DNA of 47,149 bases from an uncultured bacterium (GCA_905214245.1 CAJMLO010000001.1:80427-127575); one strand, 5' to 3'; shown: positions 3,202 to 38,923, counted from the stretch's first letter. Translations and numbers: made by a program. Notes: a model not told the origin generated them from the sequence alone.

Positions 3202-3639
3202 TTATTTTGTATTAGAAATTGTTACTACAAATCTTTCTACATTAGGATATTTGAACTTAGCCTCATATGTTTTTTCCTCTCCTGCATCAAGAGTACCTAT
3301 TTCAACATATTCTTTTCCTATTTCTACATTATTTTTTGTATAAAAATCAAACTCAATATATTTTCCCTTTATTTCTGCATCAGTATTATTTTTTACAGTT
3401 CCTTTTATATATCCATTTGCATTAGTTTGTTTTGCTTCCTGTACCGTAATAGCTGGGCTTTTTGCCTTTATTTCATATGACTCAATTGGTCTATAAAAAG
3501 ACTTAACACATACAGCTGTTGCGACTGCACAAAAAACGACTAATAAAACTGACCATAAAATCCATCTTTTAAGATTTGTTGTTTGCACTCTTGTATTTGC
3601 AAACCAAATTTCATTATAGTCTCCCATAACATCCTCCAT
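3202..3639 (-). CDS. Single-pass membrane protein with an extracytoplasmic beta-rich (FxLYD-like) domain, co-transcribed with lexA
   Basis: One TM segment (WILWSVLLVVFCAVATAVCV). The C-terminal domain GTVKNNTDAEIKGKYIEFDFYTKNN...GEEKTYEAKF resembles FxLYD-type domains. It begins 3 nt after the lexA stop. The true start may be the second ATG at 3627, which has a GGAGG SD. Confidence 0.6.
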   Translation of the reverse strand: MEDVMGDYNEIWFANTRVQTTNLKRWILWSVLLVVFCAVATAVCVKSFYRPIESYEIKAKSPAITVQEAKQTNANGYIKGTVKNNTDAEIKGKYIEFDFYTKNNVEIGKEYVEIGTLDAGEEKTYEAKFKYPNVERFVVTISNTK

Positions 3640-3642
3640 AAA

Positions 3643-4311
3643 TTACATTTTTCTAAATACTCCTATTACCTTGCCTAGTATCTCACAGTTTGGAACGATT
3701 ATTGGATCCATTGTACTATTTTCAGGTTGTAATCTTATGTAATCTTTTTCTTTGTAAAATGTTTTTACTGTTGCTTCATCTTCAATTAATGCAACAACAA
3801 TTTCACCATTTTCTGCTGTATTTTGTTTTCTAACTAAAATATAATCTCCACTTAAAATACCAGCTTCAATCATACTTTCTCCTCTTACAGTAAGCATAAA
3901 GCTTTCACTGTTTCCAACAAAATCAATAGGAATAGGAAATGTATCTGTAACATTTTCCACTGCAAGAATTGGTTCTCCTGCTGTAATTTTTCCAATAACA
4001 GGAACTTCTACCATCTCTCTACTTGCATAAAAATCTTTTGATTCTTTTCTTTTCTTTTTAGCTACATTTTCCCCATTTTCATCTTTGATTAATTTTAGAG
4101 TTCTACCCTTTTGATTTTCTTTTCTTATATATCCTTTTTCCTCTAATCTTTTAAGATATCCATGTACTGTTGCAGTTGAACTTAAACCTACAGCTTTTCC
4201 AATTTCTCTAACTGATGGTGGATATCCTTCTTTTTCTATTTGTTTTGCAATAAATTTTAATATTGATTTTTCTCTTTTGTTTAGTCCGTCCTTTAATATT
4301 TTATGTTTCAA
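3643..4311 (-). CDS. lexA: LexA SOS repressor (S24 peptidase)
   Basis: Winged-helix N-terminus ([32 protein letters not shown]). S24 domain with [11 protein letters not shown] (Ser nucleophile) and VKTF (Lys). TTG start with an AGGAG SD. Confidence 0.93.
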
Positions 4312-4345
4312 AAAACATCACTCCTATTTCCCTCTATTTGGTCAT

Positions 4346-4374
4346 ATCATATCACACAAACAAAAAAATGTCAA
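4346..4374 (-). promoter_or_regulatory. Candidate sigma-A promoter for lexA (TTGACA-17-TATGAT)
   Basis: On the minus strand, TTGACA lies at 4374-4369 and TATGAT at 4351-4346, 17 nt apart. It overlaps the 3' arm of the obg terminator. Confidence 0.45.
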
Positions 4375-4395
4375 ACAAATTTTTGACATTTTTTG
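4362..4395 (-). terminator. Intrinsic terminator after obg
   Basis: Inverted repeat AAAAAATGTCAAA/TTTGACATTTTTT followed by a T-run on the minus strand. Confidence 0.7.
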
Positions 4396-4412
4396 TGTTG
4401 GATTATCAAAAT

Positions 4413-6702
<2,290 letters not shown>

Positions 6703-29614: not shown

Positions 29615-30979
29615 TTATTTGAATTCTGGTGGTAAGTCAACTGAGTCGAATAACCAATCACCCATATATAGTTGTATACATGGTACAATGATTACAATTA
29701 CAAGGAATATTAATGCTGCACCAACAATTGCATATACAATTTGTGGTAACACGCTCATTACTTTTTGCATCTTGTTATTTATGTCTATTTCCATATACTC
29801 AACTAATTTTTCCATCATTCCTGATAAATCTGTTTGCATACCTATTTTCAACATCTCTGTTTCCATTGATGATGAAAGACCAGATTTTTCAAATGGTTCA
29901 ATCCATGAACCACCAATTAATATGTTGTTAATTGCTGTTTCAATAATAGAAAGCATAACATAATTTTTTACTACCGATTTACTAACTTCCAATGCTTCTT
30001 GAATTCTCATTCCATTTTCTAGGTTTAAAAGCATTGCTTTCATTAGTCTTTCAAAATCCATTGCATATATTAAGCTTCCAAATACAGGCATTTTATATTT
30101 AAAATAATGAAAGTTATATCTTCCCTTTGGAGTATTTATATATGCAATTATAACTGCTACTATTGCCCCAATTATTGCAGTTGGAATTGGCCAATACTGT
30201 GCAATTTTATTACAAAAATCAACAAACCAAAGTGTTATTGCTGGAAGCTGAGTTGTTGCGCCCGCTGCTGCAAATGATTCTTGTATTAATGGTATGATAT
30301 AGGCTACACCAAAGATTAATAATCCAACCAAAAGCACTAATTGAATTGCATTTGGTACAATAATTTTTCTAAGTTTTGCACTGGTATCTGTAGATGATTC
30401 CATATATTTTACAGCTTGCTCTAGGGATTGTGTTAGGTTTCCTGAAAGTTCTCCAACTTTTATCATATTTGTATAGATATATGGGAATACATTAGAATAA
30501 TATTCCATTGTAGTGTACATATATTCACCTGATTCAACACCTGCAAGTATATCTTCAAGCACACCTCTTAAAGACATGTTTTCTGTACTTTCTATTATAG
30601 TACTTAATGCGTGAATATTGTTGAAGTTAGCTTTTTTTAGCAAGTAAAAGTTCTGTGTAAAAATTATTATATCTCTTGGAGTTATTTTTTCTTCTCTTGA
30701 TAAGGCAAGATTAATTCTTTCTTTTAATTTTGGCTTTGTACTAATTCTTCCCTGCAAGATGTTAGCTGAATCCGCCTGTTTCATGATGTCATCAATATCC
30801 ATCATGTTTCTTTTATTTGCCTTTTTCCTTTTACTATTATATCCGACTTGTGTAATACTAATTGGTAACAAATTATTATTTTTTAACTTTTTTATTAGAG
30901 TATTTCTATTTACATCTTCCACTCTATTACGAACAATTTGTCCCTTTTCAGTTACAGCCCTATATATATACTCTGGCAT
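29615..30979 (-). CDS. pilC: Type IV pilus platform protein PilC (GspF family)
   Basis: Polytopic protein, 454 aa, with duplicated GspF-type cytoplasmic domains. It follows pilB-pilT. AAAGGAG SD. Confidence 0.85.
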   Translation of the reverse strand: MPEYIYRAVTEKGQIVRNRVEDVNRNTLIKKLKNNNLLPISITQVGYNSKRKKANKRNMMDIDDIMKQADSANILQGRISTKPKLKERINLALSREEKITPRDIIIFTQNFYLLKKANFNNIHALSTIIESTENMSLRGVLEDILAGVESGEYMYTTMEYYSNVFPYIYTNMIKVGELSGNLTQSLEQAVKYMESSTDTSAKLRKIIVPNAIQLVLLVGLLIFGVAYIIPLIQESFAAAGATTQLPAITLWFVDFCNKIAQYWPIPTAIIGAIVAVIIAYINTPKGRYNFHYFKYKMPVFGSLIYAMDFERLMKAMLLNLENGMRIQEALEVSKSVVKNYVMLSIIETAINNILIGGSWIEPFEKSGLSSSMETEMLKIGMQTDLSGMMEKLVEYMEIDINNKMQKVMSVLPQIVYAIVGAALIFLVIVIIVPCIQLYMGDWLFDSVDLPPEFK

Positions 30980-31007
30980 TTTCTTCTCCTTTCATTATTT
31001 ATATCTT

Positions 31008-32126
31008 TTATTGTTCTATTCTGTTTTGTCTTTCTTTTTTTATTTTTAATTGCATAATTGTTCTGTTTAAAATTTCAATATTTTTCTCTTCTATTTGTGC
31101 TTTAGCTTGCTCTAATGTTATTACATCATCAACAAACAATTCTGCAATTGAATTTATAAGTCCTATACTTCCTTTTTCACTATTACTTTGTATAGCATCT
31201 TCTATTTCAGAAACACTTATTTTTTCTTTTCTTATTATACCCGAAATAATGTTATCTACAACCATAACTTCAGGAACTAAAACTAATTTTCCTTTTCTAG
31301 ATTTTAACAATCTTTGTGAAATAACAAGTTTTAGTAATGAAGAAATCATGTATTTAACAGTTTGTTGATCTCTTATTTCATAGAAGTTTACCATTCTGTC
31401 TATTGTTTCAGCACATGATTTTGTATGCAATGTTCCAATTACCAAGTGTCCAGATTCTGCTGTTTCTATTGCTGCTTCCATTGTTTCTTTATCTCTTATC
31501 TCACCGATAACAAGAATATCACAGTCCTCTCTTAAAGAGTTCTTTACACCATCACTAAATGTTAAACAATCACGTCCAAGTCCAATTTCTTTTTGTACAA
31601 TTACAGATTTTTTTGATTTATGTTTAAACTCAACTGGGTTTTCCAATGTTAAAATCTTTTTATTTTGAGTTTCATTTATTTCATTAATCAAAGCATTTAG
31701 AGTTGTTGTTTTACCAGAGTTTGTTTTACCAGTTACAAGTATAAGTCCTTGTGGTTGGTATGTCATTCTTCTTACTATGTCTGGTACTCCTAGGTCTTCG
31801 TATTTTGGAAGTTGATTTTTTATAAGTCTTAAAGTAAATATTGGAATTTCATCAGAGTATGATATATTTACTCTTAAACGTATATCTTCAAATTCGTAAG
31901 AACAGTCTAATTTTCTTGTTTCCTTAAATACTTTATCTTTATACAAATTTCCACGAACAAAGTAATCATATGCATCATTCATATCATCTGGTGTTAGTTC
32001 TTCCATTTCTTCAATATGCACAAGTTCTCTCATTATTCTTAGTATTGGTTTCATTCCACATATTAAATGCACATCAGATGCATCTTTTTCTTTGGCTATA
32101 GTTAATATTGAATCAATATCTATCAT
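31008..32126 (-). CDS. pilT: Type IV pilus retraction ATPase PilT
   Basis: Walker A GKTNSGKTTT, Asp box, His box LVIGTLHTKS. 372 aa, no N-terminal GspE-N domain. Confidence 0.88.
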   Translation of the reverse strand: MIDIDSILTIAKEKDASDVHLICGMKPILRIMRELVHIEEMEELTPDDMNDAYDYFVRGNLYKDKVFKETRKLDCSYEFEDIRLRVNISYSDEIPIFTLRLIKNQLPKYEDLGVPDIVRRMTYQPQGLILVTGKTNSGKTTTLNALINEINETQNKKILTLENPVEFKHKSKKSVIVQKEIGLGRDCLTFSDGVKNSLREDCDILVIGEIRDKETMEAAIETAESGHLVIGTLHTKSCAETIDRMVNFYEIRDQQTVKYMISSLLKLVISQRLLKSRKGKLVLVPEVMVVDNIISGIIRKEKISVSEIEDAIQSNSEKGSIGLINSIAELFVDDVITLEQAKAQIEEKNIEILNRTIMQLKIKKERQNRIEQ

Positions 32127-32152
32127 TTGTTTTCCTCCTCTATTTTTATTTA

Positions 32153-33778
32153 TTAATAAAGCGCTAATTTATTATTTAATTCATCCAAGTTTGTTATCCC
32201 ATTTAGAACTTTATTTAATCCGTCTATAACAAGTGGTAAATATCCTTCTTCCACAGCTGCTTCTTTTATTTCAAGCACAGATGCATTATTTGAAATTAGT
32301 GTTCTAATTTTATCATTTAAAATTAATACTTCAAAAATACCAATTCTATCATAGTACCCACTATTATGGCATTTTTTACATCCTACAGCATCATATGTTT
32401 TTTTACCTTCAAAATCAAAAGTAACTCCTGATTTTTCGCCTATTTCTCTGATTATTTCTTTTTCCTCTACTGTAAAATCTCTTTCTTTTCTACAATTTGG
32501 GCAAAGTTTTCTTACAAGTCTTTGAGATACTGATGTTGCTAAAGTACTTGCAATATCATAATTTGAAATACCCATTTTTCTTAATCTTGTAACAACCTCT
32601 ATACTGTTGATTGTATGGATTGTAGAAAGAACATAATGTCCAGTTTGTCCAGCTTGCATTGCAATTTCTGCTGTTTCCTTATCTCTTATTTCTCCAACAA
32701 GAATAATATCTGGATCTTGTCTAAGAACTGTTCTTAATGCTCCAGCGAATGTTGTTTTATTATCTATTTCTATTTGGTTTAATCCATCGATACGAATTTC
32801 AACTGGGTCTTCAATTGTTGTAATATTTATTTCTGGTCTATTTAAATAATCTATAATACTGTATAATGTTGTTGTTTTACCTTCTCCAGTTGGAGCTGCG
32901 ATAACAGTAATACTATTTTTCTTGTTAAATGCGTCTTTTAATAGTTTTTCATCTCTTGGAAATCCAAGTGCAAATATTTCTTTTACATCTTCGTTTTTCT
33001 TTAATAATCTTAAAACAAATTTTTCTCCATAAATATTCTTTTGTGAAGAAACACGAATATTGTAATCAGGATACATTATAATTCTACCATCTTGTGATTC
33101 TTGTTTTTCCTGATGCATATTAGATATAGCTTTTAATCTTCCTATTATTTGACTTTGCTTTTCATTGTCTACAACAGTGGCTGTTATTAATTGTCCATCT
33201 ATTCTATATCTAATTCTAAGAGATTTTTGAAGTGGCTCTATATGAATATCGCTCGCTCTTTTCTCCATGGCAGATTTTATAACACTATCTATAAAGCCTG
33301 ATACATCTGCATTTACATCAATGCTTTCAGAATTGCCTTCTAGTGAAGATAAAATTTCCTCTATATTTGTTTCGAAAGTTATATATTTATCCATAATAAG
33401 ACCTTTATTAAGTAGTAAAAGTCTTATAGTTTCTACAGTTTTTCTATTTGAAGTATCAGCAAAACAAACCTTTATCTTTCCTCCGCCTACTTCAAAAGGT
33501 ATAGCTTTAGATGCTTTTGCTAAATCCATAGAAATATAGTCTAACATATTAACCTTTATATCAGCTTCACGAAGGTAAATTGCTTTTTCTTCAAGTATTT
33601 CTCCCATTGCATCTATAAGCACATATGGATCACATACTTTTAGAATATTTAATATATCGCCAATTTTCTTTCCTGGTTGTGTTTTTTGATAATCTAAAGC
33701 TCTTGCAATGTCTTCTTCTGTTACAATTCCTCTTTTTACAAGTTCAATTCCAAGTGGTTGTCTTTTTTTATCGCTCAT
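32153..33778 (-). CDS. pilB: Type IV pilus assembly ATPase PilB (GspE family) with an MshEN-like N-terminus
   Basis: Walker A APTGEGKTTT. Tetracysteine motif CPNC...CKKC. N-terminal LGIELVKRGIVTEEDIARALDYQ. Start moved to MSDKKRQ (33778), with an AAGGAG SD. Confidence 0.9.
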   Translation of the reverse strand: MSDKKRQPLGIELVKRGIVTEEDIARALDYQKTQPGKKIGDILNILKVCDPYVLIDAMGEILEEKAIYLREADIKVNMLDYISMDLAKASKAIPFEVGGGKIKVCFADTSNRKTVETIRLLLLNKGLIMDKYITFETNIEEILSSLEGNSESIDVNADVSGFIDSVIKSAMEKRASDIHIEPLQKSLRIRYRIDGQLITATVVDNEKQSQIIGRLKAISNMHQEKQESQDGRIIMYPDYNIRVSSQKNIYGEKFVLRLLKKNEDVKEIFALGFPRDEKLLKDAFNKKNSITVIAAPTGEGKTTTLYSIIDYLNRPEINITTIEDPVEIRIDGLNQIEIDNKTTFAGALRTVLRQDPDIILVGEIRDKETAEIAMQAGQTGHYVLSTIHTINSIEVVTRLRKMGISNYDIASTLATSVSQRLVRKLCPNCRKERDFTVEEKEIIREIGEKSGVTFDFEGKKTYDAVGCKKCHNSGYYDRIGIFEVLILNDKIRTLISNNASVLEIKEAAVEEGYLPLVIDGLNKVLNGITNLDELNNKLALY

Positions 33779-33865
33779 AGTATTTCTCCTTTCTTTTGTT
33801 AACCATAATATCATTATACTATATTACATCTTTTTTAAATAGTATTTTCTTCATTTTACATATAA

Positions 33866-34303
33866 TTACCAGTATTTAAGTACAAAGTCTACACTTCTTT
33901 GAATATTCGATTTACCATTTCCAAGTGTAACATCAACTCGTACTATTTTCTTAGTAAATCCATTTTTAGTATAGTCTGATACATTAAATTTCATTGCCTG
34001 AACATTTTTAGCAACTTCTGTACCATTTCTATATATTTTTTTGTTTTTGTACTCATACTTAGTTCCATCATCAAATTCAATACTTGTATCAGTATTTGAT
34101 TTTGTTGTTGAATTTTTCTTAACATCTGCTACAAAAAACATCGAAAACTTATTAAATTCTGTAACATATTTTGGAGCACTTTCAACTTTAGCAACATTTT
34201 TGTAAAAATGTGCTGATATTGCAGTAACCATACTAAGAATTATCATAAAAACACTTATATATGCTACTAATGCAGTTAAAGTTACACCTTTTTCAGTTTT
34301 CAT
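33866..34303 (-). CDS. Minor pilin (class III signal peptide MKTEKG|VTLTAL)
   Basis: Short basic leader ending in Gly, followed by a hydrophobic helix. Lies within the pilus operon. Confidence 0.7.
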   Translation of the reverse strand: MKTEKGVTLTALVAYISVFMIILSMVTAISAHFYKNVAKVESAPKYVTEFNKFSMFFVADVKKNSTTKSNTDTSIEFDDGTKYEYKNKKIYRNGTEVAKNVQAMKFNVSDYTKNGFTKKIVRVDVTLGNGKSNIQRSVDFVLKYW

Positions 34304-34322
34304 ATCTTTATCCTTCCCAAAA

Positions 34323-34730
34323 TTAAAGCTCTTTTACCTTAATTTTATTTACAACCAAGCTTTCAGTATTATTATCGAGTTTATATGTTATTGTAAGTTT
34401 AAAGTTTTTTATTAAATCTTCCTTATTTGTACCCTCATTATAATTCGTAACTTCTATTTTTAAGTCATAACTATTAGAAATTGAAAATATATCTCTATAG
34501 TGACTTTCCATTCCATTTACAACTTCATCATAGGTTATTTTATCAATATCTTCTAATATTTCAATTGCATAAAAATTAGCCTGTCCTGCTATTTTAGTTT
34601 GCAGCTCTGTTCTAAATGCTGTATACATAAGTGTACCTATTAAGCTTGCAAACATTGTAAATATAATTATAGCTGCTGCTAAATCTGTCATAGTAAATCC
34701 AGATTCAGATTTCACATTTATATCTTTCAT
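34323..34730 (-). CDS. Minor pilin (leader ...SESG|FTMTDLAAAII; Phe1, Asp5)
   Basis: Prepilin-like G|F junction and hydrophobic helix. Lies within the pilus operon. Confidence 0.7.
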   Translation of the reverse strand: MKDINVKSESGFTMTDLAAAIIIFTMFASLIGTLMYTAFRTELQTKIAGQANFYAIEILEDIDKITYDEVVNGMESHYRDIFSISNSYDLKIEVTNYNEGTNKEDLIKNFKLTITYKLDNNTESLVVNKIKVKEL

Positions 34731-34748
34731 TCTATACCTCTTTTCCTA

Positions 34749-35573
34749 TTAATTGTAAAAAATAAATATATTACTTACAATTAATGTAATTATGTTAGCA
34801 GTACATAGATCAAATCCAATTGGTAATTTTGTATATTCTTTTACTTCTGTTTTTACGCATTTGCTTTTTTTAGCAAGTATGTTTTTAATTATTAATTGTA
34901 ATGAAATTGCGATTAATGTAATTATAACACTGAAAATGCATACAAATTCATATGTAAAACTTAGCATAAATGTTAGTAATAAAAGTATGTCTATTGTATA
35001 ATTTCCTTTTGCGTTTTTTCTTAGAATAAATGTATTTATTATTGTTAAAATTCCAAATACAATTAAATATATAACATATCTATATACATTAGTATTAATT
35101 TCTACTATATATAGATAAATCATATAAATAGTAACACAAATAAAGCCAAACAAAAGTACTGGCTTTTCAATTTTTACATTTTCTTTATCTATTCCAGCTA
35201 TTATAAATAATGTAGCAATGTATAATAATCCTGTAATAAAATATGCAATTAATTGTTTATCTAAAAATATAATATCAAATATACTTAGTTTTACTGAAAT
35301 TGCAAATAAAACAAATACAATACCTGACATTACTTCAAGCATAAGATATCTTGGTCTAATCTTTTGACCACAATATCTGCATTTGCCTCCTAAAAAGACA
35401 TAACTTAAAATTGGAATCATATCCCAAAAAGAAAGTTTATGATTACACTTTGGACAATATGAACGTGTATGTGTTATATCTTGTCTAAGTGGAATTCTAT
35501 AAACAGCAAGCGTAAAAAAACTACCAAAAACAGTTCCGATACAAAAAATTAGTAAATATAATATATAGTCCAT
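34749..35573 (-). CDS. pilD: Prepilin peptidase PilD (A24 family)
   Basis: N-terminal CPKC...CRYC zinc motif. Polytopic. First catalytic Asp context IIAGID. Second Asp region is degenerate (KGNYTID instead of GxGD). Confidence 0.85.
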   Translation of the reverse strand: MDYILYLLIFCIGTVFGSFFTLAVYRIPLRQDITHTRSYCPKCNHKLSFWDMIPILSYVFLGGKCRYCGQKIRPRYLMLEVMSGIVFVLFAISVKLSIFDIIFLDKQLIAYFITGLLYIATLFIIAGIDKENVKIEKPVLLFGFICVTIYMIYLYIVEINTNVYRYVIYLIVFGILTIINTFILRKNAKGNYTIDILLLLTFMLSFTYEFVCIFSVIITLIAISLQLIIKNILAKKSKCVKTEVKEYTKLPIGFDLCTANIITLIVSNIFIFYN

Positions 35574-35600
35574 ATTTCCTCCATTATATAATTTAATAAA

Positions 35601-35650
35601 AGAGGTTACCTAAATATAATTATCATAAAATGATACCATATAGATAACCT
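35601..35650 (-). terminator. Imperfect long hairpin plus U-run between pilA and pilD (likely partial terminator or attenuator)
   Basis: GAGGTTA.../...TAACCTC outer stem with a TATCAT/ATGATA inner stem, followed on the minus strand by TTTTATT. Confidence 0.5.
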
Positions 35651-35701
35651 CATATTTAGTTTAAATTAATTTTAAACCGTTTAAAATAATTTTAATTGAC
35701 T

Positions 35702-35932
35702 TTATTTTGTTGTTTTAGCTTCATTTAAATATCCATCAATATATGTTACTGTGTTAGCTGTGAATTTGTTGAATTCATCGCCTTGTCCTTCATAGTATGT
35801 TTTAGCATCTTGTGCTTTACCAATTATTCCTCCGTTGATAGCAACTGAGATACTAATTGTAGCAAGAATAATTAAAACTACTATTGTAACAACTAAAGCT
35901 ACTAAAGTAATACCTTTTTGATTCTTTAACAT
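35702..35932 (-). CDS. pilA: Major type IV pilin, unusually short (76-aa precursor, 69-aa mature) and lacking Phe1/Glu5
   Basis: MLKNQKG|ITLVALVVTIVVLIILATISI. AAGGAGG SD. A hairpin follows the gene. No cysteines. Confidence 0.8.
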   Translation of the reverse strand: MLKNQKGITLVALVVTIVVLIILATISISVAINGGIIGKAQDAKTYYEGQGDEFNKFTANTVTYIDGYLNEAKTTK

Positions 35933-35990
35933 AAAAAATTCCTCCTTTTAAATATTTTGTATATATTTAAGTTAATAAATATAACCTATG

Positions 35991-36440
35991 TTATTTGATA
36001 CCTGTATCATTGAAGAATGTTCCTGTTGAATTTGGATCTGATTTTCCAGAGTTAGAGGTATCTTTGTTTTGATTGTTTCCATTATCACCATTTGATGTAT
36101 TTCCATTATTATTTTTGTTTCCATTTGTGCTTGAAGTATTTTCTACAGAAAGTGAAAATGGATCTTTCTTTCCAGGTTTATAACTAGATGATTGTTTGTA
36201 TATATTCAAATCTGCATCTGTTATTTCATATGATATTTCTGTCTTTTCGAGTTCAGTAATTGTTTCATTTATTTCTTCTTTTACTTCATTTGGAGTTATA
36301 TATGCCTCTTTGGCTGGTATCATTTTGTTTGTTGGAATATAATCATAAAATAATAATCCAAAAATCAATACAATTGCTATACAAAGTAATAACATAATTA
36401 GTATTTCTTTTATAACTGATTTTACCATTTTTTCCTCCAT
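35991..36440 (-). CDS. Single-pass membrane protein with an Asn/Gly/Ser/Thr-rich tail; pilus-operon accessory of unknown function
   Basis: TM segment ILIMLLLCIAIVLIFGLLF. Low-complexity C-terminus TNGNKNNNGNTSNGDNGNNQNKDTSNSG. The start may be the second ATG at 36428 (GGAGGAAAAA SD). Confidence 0.6.
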   Translation of the reverse strand: MEEKMVKSVIKEILIMLLLCIAIVLIFGLLFYDYIPTNKMIPAKEAYITPNEVKEEINETITELEKTEISYEITDADLNIYKQSSSYKPGKKDPFSLSVENTSSTNGNKNNNGNTSNGDNGNNQNKDTSNSGKSDPNSTGTFFNDTGIK

Positions 36441-36443
36441 TCT

Positions 36444-37181
36444 TTATTGTTGTGTATTTTCAGTTGGTGCCAAAGTATTATCAACAGCACCTGTTAATTG
36501 ATTTAATTTGCTTGTATCTTCTGTTGTTGTATTATTTGAAGCTTCGTTTGTTGTATCTGTCTCTTGAGTTGTTGTTTTTGTAGAAGAAGATTCTGTTGTA
36601 TTTTCTGTTTTAATTCTTATTCCTCTAACATTAAATGTTGCTGTTAGCAATTCTCCTTCTTGTACTAAATTAAAATTTTCTATTTTAAAATTTAATTTAT
36701 CATCATTCTCAAGTGAAGATACAAAATCCATAATTCCTACATAATAACCTTTTGCAGTAATTGTAAGATTTTTTACATTTGCTTCTCCTGCATCTCCAGT
36801 TTTAACATCAATTGTAAGGTTTACACCTTTTGATGTAGCATGATTTCCTATTCTTGTCCACAAATATTCAATATAATATGTTTCTTCTGTATTTGCCTTT
36901 GTTATTTCTTTATCAGAACTTAATTTTGCGGCTTTAAAATATTCTTCTTTTTTGCTTAGTAAGTCAGTTACTGATGATGAAAGTTCTTCTTTTTTTGATG
37001 GATAATCAATTTTTAACAAAGACTGTGCTTTTTGTATTTCACCATCTAATTGATTATTTGCATCAACAATTTCTTTTGCACTTAGAACTTTAAGTTCTCC
37101 AACAGTTAATCCTTTCACTATTGTGAAATATGCCAATACAACAAGCAATACAATCAAAATTGATATTAATACTTTTTTCAT
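36444..37181 (-). CDS. pilO: PilO-like pilus alignment protein
   Basis: N-terminal TM, coiled coil, and a C-terminal ferredoxin-like region (ITAKGYYVGIMDFVSSLEND). Its start overlaps the pilM/N stop (ATGA). Confidence 0.7.
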   Translation of the reverse strand: MKKVLISILIVLLVVLAYFTIVKGLTVGELKVLSAKEIVDANNQLDGEIQKAQSLLKIDYPSKKEELSSSVTDLLSKKEEYFKAAKLSSDKEITKANTEETYYIEYLWTRIGNHATSKGVNLTIDVKTGDAGEANVKNLTITAKGYYVGIMDFVSSLENDDKLNFKIENFNLVQEGELLTATFNVRGIRIKTENTTESSSTKTTTQETDTTNEASNNTTTEDTSKLNQLTGAVDNTLAPTENTQQ

Positions 37182-38803
37182 GGCAAATCCCCCTCTATTG
37201 TAACTTTAATGAAATCTCCGTCTCTTTCGCCTTGTGAAGATACAACTGTATTTTTCATAAGCACATTATCTTCTTTTATTTTTGCTTTAAAATAGCCAAG
37301 TTGTTCATACTTTCTAGATTGAGCTTTGATTACAATATGCTTTCCTGTTGTGTTTTCAATTTGTGTAACTTGTACATCTTTTGGAATTACTGTCATAATC
37401 TGCATTAATAAATCTGGTATCATATCTTTTGAACTTGCAGCATCTTCTATTTTAGTATTAATATTTTTTAAATTCTGTGTCATTTCAGAATATTTATTTG
37501 CTTTTTGTTTTACGCTTGAATTATCTTGCTCTACAAGTGCAATTTGCATGCTTGTATCAGTTTGAACATCTTTAGCTTCTGTAATTTTTTCGTTTATAGC
37601 TTGTTCTAAATACATAGAAAAACTTGTATAAATAACAGTTAGTAAAAATATTCCACCAGCTGTTCTAAGCATCCATCTTTCTGTAGCATCCATTTTTGAT
37701 TTTAAGTCACTAAAGTTCAATTTAAATTTGCTAGAGCTACTGCTTTTTTCTGTTTTTGGTCCAATCTCTATTTTTGCCCAGTCAGGTAATTTATCATAAA
37801 AACTTTGTTTCTTAAAGTTCATACTTTTAATTCCATAACCTAATCCTTGCATTGCAATAGCAATTGCTGAGTTGACCTCTATATAATCTTTTATATTTAT
37901 CTTTATATTTTCTGTAACAAAGTAAGGTTTTAACACTTCGCACTTTTCATTTTGAAAAAATTCTTGAAAATATAAATCAATATTATTTACAACCGACATT
38001 GTTCCAGTAATATATATTTTGTCAAATTTTGTAGTTGTATTTGCAACGTATTCTTGAATCTTTTGAACTATTTTGTATAATGTAGGCATAATATCATCAA
38101 GATACTCATTTCCTTCATCTTGAAGTTCTTTTCCTTCCATTGTATAAATAGTTGAATTTTTGCATACTTCATATGCTTTAGAATATGAATTTTCCTTAGC
38201 ATTTATTTGATTCAAAATATCTGCAGAACCTTCTTCTATTTTTTTAACATCATATACTTTTTGATCAATTATCGTTGTAATTGTTGTCTTTTCTTCTATA
38301 TTTACTATGATAATATTTTCTTTTTGTTTTACTTCTGCGACATTGGCTATACTTGTTCCTAAAGGTGTAACGCAAGACACTTTTGCATCTTCAATCAATT
38401 GCGTATCTTTATTTAAAGACGTTTTATTGGTTGAAACATATATTACTTTTATTTTATCCTTATCTTCTATCGAATTTGCAAGTGCATATCTTCCTTCAAA
38501 AGCATTCTTGTTTATATTTTTATCAAAACAATAAGATTCAAACTCTGTTTCAATAGCCTTTTTTAGGTCCTCTTTTTTTAGCAAGTTAAACATATAGAAA
38601 TAATTATATATTTCATCTGATAAGTTGATGCTAATTGGAATTTTAAAGCTGTAGGTTTCTGAAATAATTTGCTTTATTGCTTCATCAAGCTTATCATAGA
38701 ACTTAATTCCAAAAGATTCTATTTTAAGGATATCACGCTCTTTTGACACTTTTGCATATTTAATTATATTTGTTTCAATATATAATCCTAAACAGCTTGG
38801 CAT
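37178..38803 (-). CDS. pilM: PilM-PilN fusion protein (actin-like ATPase domain, TM, PilN-like domain)
   Basis: N-terminal PilM-type start CLGLYIETNIIKYAKV. Mid-protein TM GGIFLLTVIYTSFSMYL. PilN-like C-terminus. Start moved to MPSCLG (38803), with an AAGGAG SD. Confidence 0.75.
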   Translation of the reverse strand: MPSCLGLYIETNIIKYAKVSKERDILKIESFGIKFYDKLDEAIKQIISETYSFKIPISINLSDEIYNYFYMFNLLKKEDLKKAIETEFESYCFDKNINKNAFEGRYALANSIEDKDKIKVIYVSTNKTSLNKDTQLIEDAKVSCVTPLGTSIANVAEVKQKENIIIVNIEEKTTITTIIDQKVYDVKKIEEGSADILNQINAKENSYSKAYEVCKNSTIYTMEGKELQDEGNEYLDDIMPTLYKIVQKIQEYVANTTTKFDKIYITGTMSVVNNIDLYFQEFFQNEKCEVLKPYFVTENIKINIKDYIEVNSAIAIAMQGLGYGIKSMNFKKQSFYDKLPDWAKIEIGPKTEKSSSSSKFKLNFSDLKSKMDATERWMLRTAGGIFLLTVIYTSFSMYLEQAINEKITEAKDVQTDTSMQIALVEQDNSSVKQKANKYSEMTQNLKNINTKIEDAASSKDMIPDLLMQIMTVIPKDVQVTQIENTTGKHIVIKAQSRKYEQLGYFKAKIKEDNVLMKNTVVSSQGERDGDFIKVTIEGDLP

Positions 38804-38923
38804 TGTATTCTCCTTCGTTTTTTTATTATAAACATTATTATGTTTTGCAAAATAAAACAAATAATACTTGAATATTTTTCCTCATATTGCAAAAAATATT
38901 TAAAATTTATTTTTTCTTTAATT

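Follow-up and report, generated by a model that had tools for sequence, protein, structure and literature searches.

The window analyzed here, a 47,149-nt stretch of DNA from an uncultured bacterium (GCA_905214245.1, CAJMLO010000001.1:80427-127575), carries a chromosomal locus on the minus strand (29615 to 38803) that probably encodes a retractile type IVa-like pilus, built from pilins that lack the canonical Glu5 and displaying modular adhesins. The locus pairs a standard type IVa motor set with a very large, unannotated class of pilins devoid of Phe1 and Glu5 and with a degenerate prepilin peptidase. Five of its identities are confident, namely, PilB, PilT, PilC, the N-terminal domain of PilD, and a PilM-PilN fusion. 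Gene content, conservation, and the sequence characters of the pilins and of PilD are established here; where the prepilins are cut, that they are methylated and form a filament, that PilA is the major pilin, and that the modular proteins join the fiber are predictions made from the sequence.

A candidate type IVa pilus operon

Ten co-directional open reading frames (ORFs) are tightly packed on the minus strand between 29615 and 38860, the latter being the limit to which the outermost frame extends. All of them are present in the order given by the original prediction: the pilM-pilN fusion, pilO, a gene for an Asn-rich membrane protein, pilA, pilD, two minor pilin genes, pilB, pilT, and pilC. 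The first two genes overlap by 4 nt, 3 nt separate the PilO-position gene from that of the Asn-rich protein, and 58 nt separate the latter from pilA; from pilD onward the gaps are 18 to 51 nt. The widest spacer in the operon, 128 nt between pilA and pilD, contains a hairpin followed by a U-tract. Family scans recovered the type IVa machinery core of PilB, PilC, and PilT, and no secretin was found among the ORFs of the window. Together with the identification of PilM-PilN, these results bear out the prediction of a complete, secretin-free type IVa locus of the monoderm kind that includes PilT.

PilA represents a large pilin class without Phe1 and Glu5

The pilA gene (35702 to 35932) encodes a 76-aa prepilin and putative major pilin with the N terminus MLKNQKG↓ITLVALVVTIVVLIILAT... 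(the arrow marks the predicted cleavage site). This has the form of a class III signal peptide, in which the leader MLKNQKG precedes the hydrophobic segment ITLVALVVTIVVLIILATISISVA; the junction is KG↓ITLVAL, and the predicted mature pilin has 69 aa. A six-frame pattern scan of the window returned the four reported pilin-like N termini and no others of that type. Besides PilA, they belong to minor pilin 1 (34323 to 34730, 135 aa, SG↓FTMTD), minor pilin 2 (33866 to 34303, 145 aa, KG↓VTLTAL), and a 163-aa pilin-like protein encoded apart from the operon on the same strand (12080 to 12571, ORF to 12694, NG↓ITLIAL). The four termini read exactly as had been described, with Phe1 and Glu5 missing from PilA, minor pilin 2, and the protein at 12080, each of which has Ala at +5 instead of the Glu5 expected of a type IV pilin.

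PilA aligns with the Pfam N_methyl profile (PF07963) in the canonical register, residues 3 to 27 against profile positions 2 to 26. In this register, Ile stands for Phe1 and Ala for Glu5, and the helix breakers Gly14 and Pro22 are absent. The match scores 20.7 bits, under the gathering score of 21.2; the paralogs score 15.9 to 17.4 bits, also below threshold, and TIGR02532 gave no match to PilA. The N_methyl search had been proposed together with the original prediction.

At an E value of ≤1e-3, 573 homologs of PilA were found, all from metagenomes or metagenome-assembled genomes (MAGs). Their first ∼30 residues are almost invariant and the remainder is divergent, as in major pilins. None of the 573 carries a name or a Pfam domain, and no source names any member of the family. 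An exhaustive profile search of 1.84 billion cluster representatives (clusters at 50% identity) expanded the G↓ITL.AL class to 28,719 clusters at an E value of ≤1e-3, or 6,693 at ≤1e-10. Among the top 145 new representatives, Gly-1 was present in 144, Ile or Val at +1 in all 145, and Ala at +5 in 143. Because the G↓(I/V)TL.AL motif is nearly invariant over thousands of homologs, it does not reflect chance. The motif strings were absent from the papers searched, and no paper describing the class was found.

The AlphaFold model of PilA (30-sequence alignment, pLDDT 81) consists of two helices, residues 3 to 33 and 36 to 74, with a break at a conserved NGG and no β-sheet head. Upstream of pilA lies a strong ribosome-binding site, AGGAGG. 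The spacer downstream (35570 to 35705), with a hairpin of the 22-bp class and UUUUAUU, folds at −25.8 kcal/mol (z = −2.8), and the stem-loop with its U-tract, which resembles a terminator or attenuator, occupies 35595 to 35651, just after pilA. Of 34 related loci whose spacers were folded, 33 have a structured one of 66 to 168 nt at this position, that of the 34th being 568 nt, and 15/34 passed a strict hairpin-plus-U test. Genes for major pilins, which are highly expressed, usually show this combination of a strong ribosome-binding site with a downstream hairpin and U-tract, and it would be an indirect indication of that role for pilA.

The operon pilin is about 140 to 150 aa, not about 70 aa, in some related species (loci L046, L074, and L025, around 10019), and the 69-aa PilA is therefore a minimal variant. 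In others pilA is tandemly multiplied, as in L066 (10019 to 12600), where five copies of about 150 aa have identical N termini.

Minor pilins and modular paralogs

Minor pilin 1 is the sole pilin of the window with an acidic residue, Asp, at +5. Its orthologs have Asp, rarely Glu, at this position in every readable locus, whereas position +1 varies among Phe, Ile, Val, Met, Ala, and Leu. The acidic residue noted in the original prediction is therefore a feature of the entire clade, which is a new point, while the Phe1 noted with it is not kept. Minor pilin 2 is related to PilA (BLASTP E value, 2e-7) and has a weak match to ComGF (E value, 0.005); its orthologs are non-acidic at +5, with one exception. 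No Pfam match and no significant NCBIfam match was obtained for either minor pilin of the window. In the canonical pattern, Glu5 is found in all pilins but a single tip subunit (PMC10191384, PMC9934059). Since the acidic +5 is here confined to minor pilin 1, the canonical Glu5 pattern is inverted.

The protein at 12080, with the N terminus MKENNNG↓ITLIALV, has an extra C-terminal region and matches PilA over its first 45 residues (60% identity; BLASTP E value, 6e-13). It was originally regarded as an orphan; the G↓ITLIAL junction stands, but the protein is one of many modular paralogs. Just downstream, at 11533 to 12057 on the minus strand, is a gene for a 174-aa signal-anchored protein that matches no family and has a V.QALD.LY motif in common with the C terminus of the protein at 12080.

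Such paralogs make up a large part of the class. Among the top 145 representatives of the profile search, 76 are longer than 120 aa, and the match usually spans ∼70 residues, corresponding to the whole PilA-like module; about half are "modular" proteins of 120 to 700 aa with adhesin-like domains. Similarly, ∼40 of the 80 related loci kept for comparison (see below) encode proteins of 200 to 940 aa that open with a G↓ITL(V/I)ALV...ILA segment. The domains of these large paralogs include FGE-sulfatase-like, Listeria-Bacteroides repeat, fn3, DUF6273, and GLUG domains, and single MAGs contributed up to eight such loci. The G↓ITL.AL class is thus very large and coherent, and it behaves as a putative "pilin module" to which further domains have been attached.

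The abundance of large paralogs that have the same N-terminal module and extracellular-type domains is also what would be expected of a type II secretion-like or surface display apparatus, in which a short PilA pseudopilus cycling under PilB and PilT would push or present large G↓ITL-anchored proteins through the thick wall. PilA is tiny and has no globular head, which fits such a device, and secretion associated with type IV pili has been proposed for Clostridium perfringens (PMC11580942). However, PilT is typical of retractile type IVa pili and not of type II secretion systems, the substrates of those systems do not bear prepilin leaders, and modular pilins on true pili have precedent (PMC9934059). 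We consider a secretion or display apparatus unlikely and favor a retractile pilus that carries the modular proteins.

Motor, platform, and alignment proteins

PilB, the assembly ATPase (32153 to 33778, 541 aa, ORF to 33814), matches T2SSE (E value, 3.8e-102), TIGR02538 (6.6e-125), and MshEN (2.4e-5). Its MshEN-like N terminus (33600 to 33778, minus strand; RQPLGIELVKRGIVTEEDIARALDYQ) scores 33.3 bits against NF053729, the MshE-related motif for binding cyclic di-GMP (c-di-GMP), below the cutoff of 38. PilB, and with it the pilus, may be responsive to c-di-GMP. Both PilM-PilN fusion and control by c-di-GMP occur in clostridia. The retraction ATPase PilT (31008 to 32126, 372 aa) scores 321.7 bits against TIGR01420, just above the cutoff of 319.1, and the Walker A, Walker B, and His box motifs are readable in its sequence. 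The platform protein PilC (29615 to 30979, 454 aa) matches T2SSF in two stretches (3.3e-28) and GspF (7.6e-52).

These scores bear on whether the locus might instead encode a competence (Com-type) pilus for DNA uptake, to which the ComGF-like match of minor pilin 2, sub-threshold matches of PilB and PilC to ComGA and ComGB, and a pilin as short as ComGC could point. Com operons lack PilM-PilN and PilT, both of which are present here; PilB matches the PilB/GspE models far better than ComGA, and the ComG models score far below their cutoffs. ComGC, moreover, has Glu5, and neither ComEA, ComEC, nor any other com gene was found in the window. A Com pilus is very improbable and was rejected because PilM-PilN and PilT are present and the ComG scores are so low.

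The PilM-PilN fusion (37178 to 38803, 541 aa from ATG, with the ORF reaching TTG at 38860) begins with an actin-like domain, which is followed by a transmembrane helix, a long coiled coil, and, at the C terminus, a PilN domain. In the initial scans, the window copy had no Pfam or NCBIfam match at an E value of ≤0.1. The PilN family PF05137 matches the C-terminal domain in 13/20 orthologs (best E value, 5.2e-6), and the window copy reaches 0.14 over residues 465 to 524. A model made with AlphaFold2 from a shallow alignment is poor (pLDDT 47), and its top Foldseek matches are PilM structures (3jc8_Ma, 5eox, and 2ych; E values, 8e-8 to 2e-6) from Myxococcus, Pseudomonas, and Thermus, which rank above FtsA and MreB. 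The fusion, as originally proposed, is supported by the PF05137 matches of the orthologs and by PilM being the best structural match, and the gene is kept in 36 loci.

The next gene (36444 to 37181) encodes a 245-aa protein in which an N-terminal transmembrane helix and a coiled coil precede an α/β domain and a tail rich in Thr and Asn, and it is kept in 37 loci. The earlier assignment to PilO holds for gene position and topology, and the label is used here only in that positional sense. Profile searches of PilM-PilN, the PilO-position protein, and PilD against PDB sequences returned spurious matches only. Between the PilO-position gene and pilA, related loci (n = 36) keep a gene for a small, bitopic membrane protein whose tail is rich in Asn, 32 to 69% identical to that of the window (35991 to 36428, 145 aa according to gene callers, ORF to 36440); this protein belongs to no Pfam or NCBIfam family and matches no known type IV pilus component.

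The operon is conserved in uncultured gut Clostridia

When each GTDB species was scanned through a single genome, at least 399 loci were confirmed, nearly all from MAGs of uncultured gut Clostridia of humans, mice, rabbits, sheep, and deer, including Clostridium sp. CAG:245 and CAG:452. Of these loci, 80 were kept for comparison. Because the pilin class is found in CAG:245, which has been placed in TANB77 (PMC11680825), and because the GC content of the window is low (about 28%), we infer that the host belongs to a TANB77/CAG-508-like lineage of low-GC, uncultured gut Clostridia.

The same operon is present in about 40 of the 80 loci, in species-level genomes of TANB77-like MAGs, often with shared flanks (genes for a TPR protein and UppP on the upstream side and for RNase J on the downstream side). 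Across these loci, identity to the window proteins is 59 to 83% for PilB, 64 to 88% for PilT, and 54 to 82% for PilC. Contigs from some 100 blocks of the collection, independent assemblies of many metagenome samples, have an identical PilA inside the same operon. Since the operon and its flanks are conserved and the identical operon recurs in independent samples, the locus is real and has been inherited vertically. We rejected a sequencing artifact on the latter ground and an origin in a mobile element or phage because the flanking genes have housekeeping roles and share the conservation of the operon. The view that the divergent N termini define a distinct pilin subclass and are no artifact is thus upheld, both by this recurrence and by the 28,719 clusters of the class.

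One contig with an identical PilA (L087, ENA contig_12887, 3300 to 5200) has no intact pilD or minor pilin calls, only ORFs of 62 and 85 aa. This gap is probably a long-read indel error, and natural decay is possible.

Proposed prepilin processing and filament assembly

In a retractile type IVa-like pilus of this composition, the prepilins would insert in the membrane such that their basic leader of 7 residues lies on the cytoplasmic side. The leader would be cut after Gly-1, probably by the operon PilD, which retains both Asp residues, and the Zn-finger domain of the same protein, which is strongly conserved, may N-methylate Ile1. PilB and PilC would polymerize the 69-aa, all-helical PilA into a thin fiber, the core of which would be held by purely hydrophobic packing of α1N, as in archaeal type IV filaments, with no salt bridge from Glu5 to the N terminus. 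The two operon minor pilins, one of them bearing the only conserved acidic +5, would prime assembly, and PilT would retract the fiber. The genome-scattered proteins with the ∼70-aa N-terminal module would be modular pilins, loaded onto or into the fiber as adhesins or glycan binders.

PilD (34749 to 35573, 274 aa), predicted to be a prepilin peptidase and N-methylase, matches A24_N_bact (PF06750; E value, 1.6e-30), and the Zn-finger cysteines C40, C43, C65, and C68 are invariant. The Peptidase_A24 family (PF01478) gave no match to the window PilD, and all of the 120 closest PilD family clusters carry only PF06750. The original identification as PilD is therefore sound for the N-terminal domain, but it had overlooked the degeneracy of the peptidase domain, which is a new point. 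PilD sequences were aligned with canonical A24 enzymes taken from annotated plasmid records, namely, those of Acetoanaerobium, Salmonella (with BfpP), and Pseudomonas. D129, in the motif GIDKE, aligns with the first catalytic Asp, a position that is Asp in 31, Glu in 4, and Asn in 2 of 37 species-level orthologs.

Several results weigh against the assembly scheme set out above. The second catalytic Asp of prepilin peptidases has been described as universally conserved and critical (PMC10191384). In the window PilD it aligns with D195, where the GxGD context is replaced by YTID and the glycines are lost, and in related species the position is non-acidic in 19/37. A controlled scan of 20 sequences found PF06750 in all 20 and PF01478 in 4 (best E value, 1.1e-24); we infer that these 4 are the canonical controls and that none of the 16 PilDs of the clade matches even at an E value of ≤1. 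The assignment of PilA as the major pilin comes from gene context only, and a Foldseek search of the PilA model against the PDB gave no structural match. Without Glu5, the N-terminal charge would be buried with no known partner. Finally, the identity of the 36444 to 37181 product as PilO, the part of the earlier assignment that was not confirmed, found no significant Pfam, NCBIfam, PDB-sequence, or profile-profile support: a comparison of its profile with that of PilM-PilN was not significant (hhalign probability, 21%), and Pfam searches of 20 orthologs gave coiled-coil noise and a single T2SSM match at 0.017.

The degenerate peptidase domain therefore makes cleavage after the Gly a genuine question. 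One answer would be that PilD is a pseudo-peptidase retained for N-methylation or as a scaffold. Cleavage would then be left to an unlinked A24/TadV-type peptidase, such as one belonging to the Tad cluster of the clade, or would not occur, the large paralogs being signal-anchored surface proteins. The missing PF01478 signal agrees with this, as does the contrast in mean pairwise identity between the Zn-finger N-terminal domain (65%) and the membrane/peptidase domain (36%). At position 195, only 12 of the 37 orthologs have Asp, the others having Glu (6), Gln (6), Asn (4), Leu (4), Ser (3), Gly (1), or Cys (1). The published Tad cluster of TANB77, for its part, lists no peptidase of its own (PMC11680825). 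On the other hand, the window PilD keeps both Asp residues, and 117/120 close relatives likewise have Asp at position 195, for which reason the window PilD may be able to cut. Furthermore, the near invariance of Gly-1 over thousands of proteins implies that some prepilin peptidase cuts them, and the PilD gene sits between pilA and the minor pilin genes in every locus. The alternative of a pseudo-peptidase, with processing by another enzyme or none, partly overlaps with the scheme of a retractile Glu5-less pilus and seems rather unlikely. Across the clade, the second-Asp position is not under constraint, whereas Gly-1 of the substrates is; where Asp195 is lost, either another peptidase would cut or the active site of PilD would have been rewired.

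Comparison with known systems

The locus most resembles the type IVa pili of monoderms, such as the pil loci of Clostridioides difficile and C. perfringens and the pili of Streptococcus sanguinis. It has PilB, PilC, PilD, PilM, PilN, and PilT in common with them (PilM and PilN being fused here), as well as minor pilins within the operon and the lack of a secretin. PilB and PilC of S. sanguinis are modular pilins with grafted adhesive domains (PMC9934059), like the modular paralogs described above. In contrast to those systems, the pilins here are without Phe1, Glu5, Gly14, and Pro22, PilA has no β-sheet head, the acidic +5 is confined to one minor pilin, and the peptidase domain of PilD is unrecognizable, with GxGD lost. 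Moreover, dozens of paralogous modular pilins are encoded at scattered genomic sites.

Archaeal type IV pilins and archaellins likewise have a short basic leader that ends in Gly and precedes a hydrophobic helix without Glu5. The motor and platform of the present system, however, are bacterial (PilB, PilT, PilC, and PilM-PilN) and not of the FlaI/FlaJ type, PilD has the bacterial A24_N methylase domain, and the host is a bacterium. Pilins without +5 Glu are also known among tip minor pilins, namely, GspK/PilK and the PilA of S. sanguinis (PMC10191384, PMC9934059), but there they are one low-abundance subunit, whereas in the present system the lack extends to the presumed shaft subunit and to almost every paralog.

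The only paper found on pili of the TANB77 clade, by Kim et al. (2024), describes a Tad-type cluster (CpaB, TadZ/CpaE, CpaF, and TadBC) in 122/129 TANB77 species and does not mention the present locus, PilB, PilT, or a prepilin peptidase (PMC11680825). Tad/Flp systems, including this one, resemble the present locus in having a very small, all-helical main pilin, and the TANB77 cluster also in belonging to the same or a close clade and in its surface "pilin-like" proteins. The Tad cluster was nevertheless rejected as the identity of the locus, since the genes differ: CpaB is missing here and PilT is present, and neither the locus nor the window contains CpaF/TadA, TadB/TadC, TadZ/CpaE, or Flp pilins with the G↓xxxxEY motif.

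Assembly models give Glu5 a central role in charge neutralization and in docking with the N-terminal amine (PMC10191384). A natural family with a Glu5-less presumed shaft pilin and a degenerate peptidase would put both this idea and that of universal two-Asp catalysis to the test. More tentatively, and with considerable doubt, the locus could stand for a type IVa pilus made from pilins that need neither Glu5 nor Phe1 and, in many species, no canonical two-Asp GxGD peptidase either. In that case, filament assembly without a salt bridge from Glu5 to the N terminus would not be restricted to archaea, and pilin processing in these species would proceed through a rewired PilD active site or a different enzyme. 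The 70-aa module would then be a universal ticket by which dozens of different adhesin or enzyme domains per genome reach a retractile fiber.

Because the class falls below the thresholds of the standard models (Pfam N_methyl; no NCBIfam/TIGR02532 match), thousands of surface proteins of abundant, uncultured gut Clostridia, probable adhesins among them, are unnamed. An association with the response to checkpoint immunotherapy has been reported for the abundance of TANB77 and for a different set of pilin-like proteins of that clade (PMC11680825). As the present clade is apparently TANB77, a second pilus with a repertoire of modular pilins is relevant to host contact. If the more tentative reading above is correct, adhesins and enzymes would be displayed on a retractile fiber in a gut clade already tied to host immune effects through other pilin-like proteins.

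Genomic setting of the locus

The other genes of the window are housekeeping genes. They encode MreB, LexA, Obg, a TrpS/TyrS-type synthetase, a Znu-type ABC transporter, ribosomal proteins S6 (rpsF) and S18 (rpsR), SSB, NrdD, SerS, GltX, RNase J, UppP, a Mur ligase, and DapF. No tRNA genes were found in the window, and no riboswitch or other Rfam family reached its gathering score there or upstream of the operon. A scan for sigma-70 promoters scored no better than shuffles in the AT-rich DNA of the window. The GC skew is uniformly negative over the entire window, with the minus strand carrying almost all of the genes.

An M23 peptidase gene is broken into two ORFs on the minus strand (13378 to 14248 and 12684 to 13337), a 239-aa ORF with the start of the M23 domain and a 72-aa ORF with its HLHFE end, which suggests a frameshift or a sequencing error. 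The split gene lies directly upstream of a gene for an M50 site-2 protease, an arrangement like that of SpoIVFA/SpoIVFB, and a DUF1256 (YyaC-like) gene is located nearby at 14804 to 15277.

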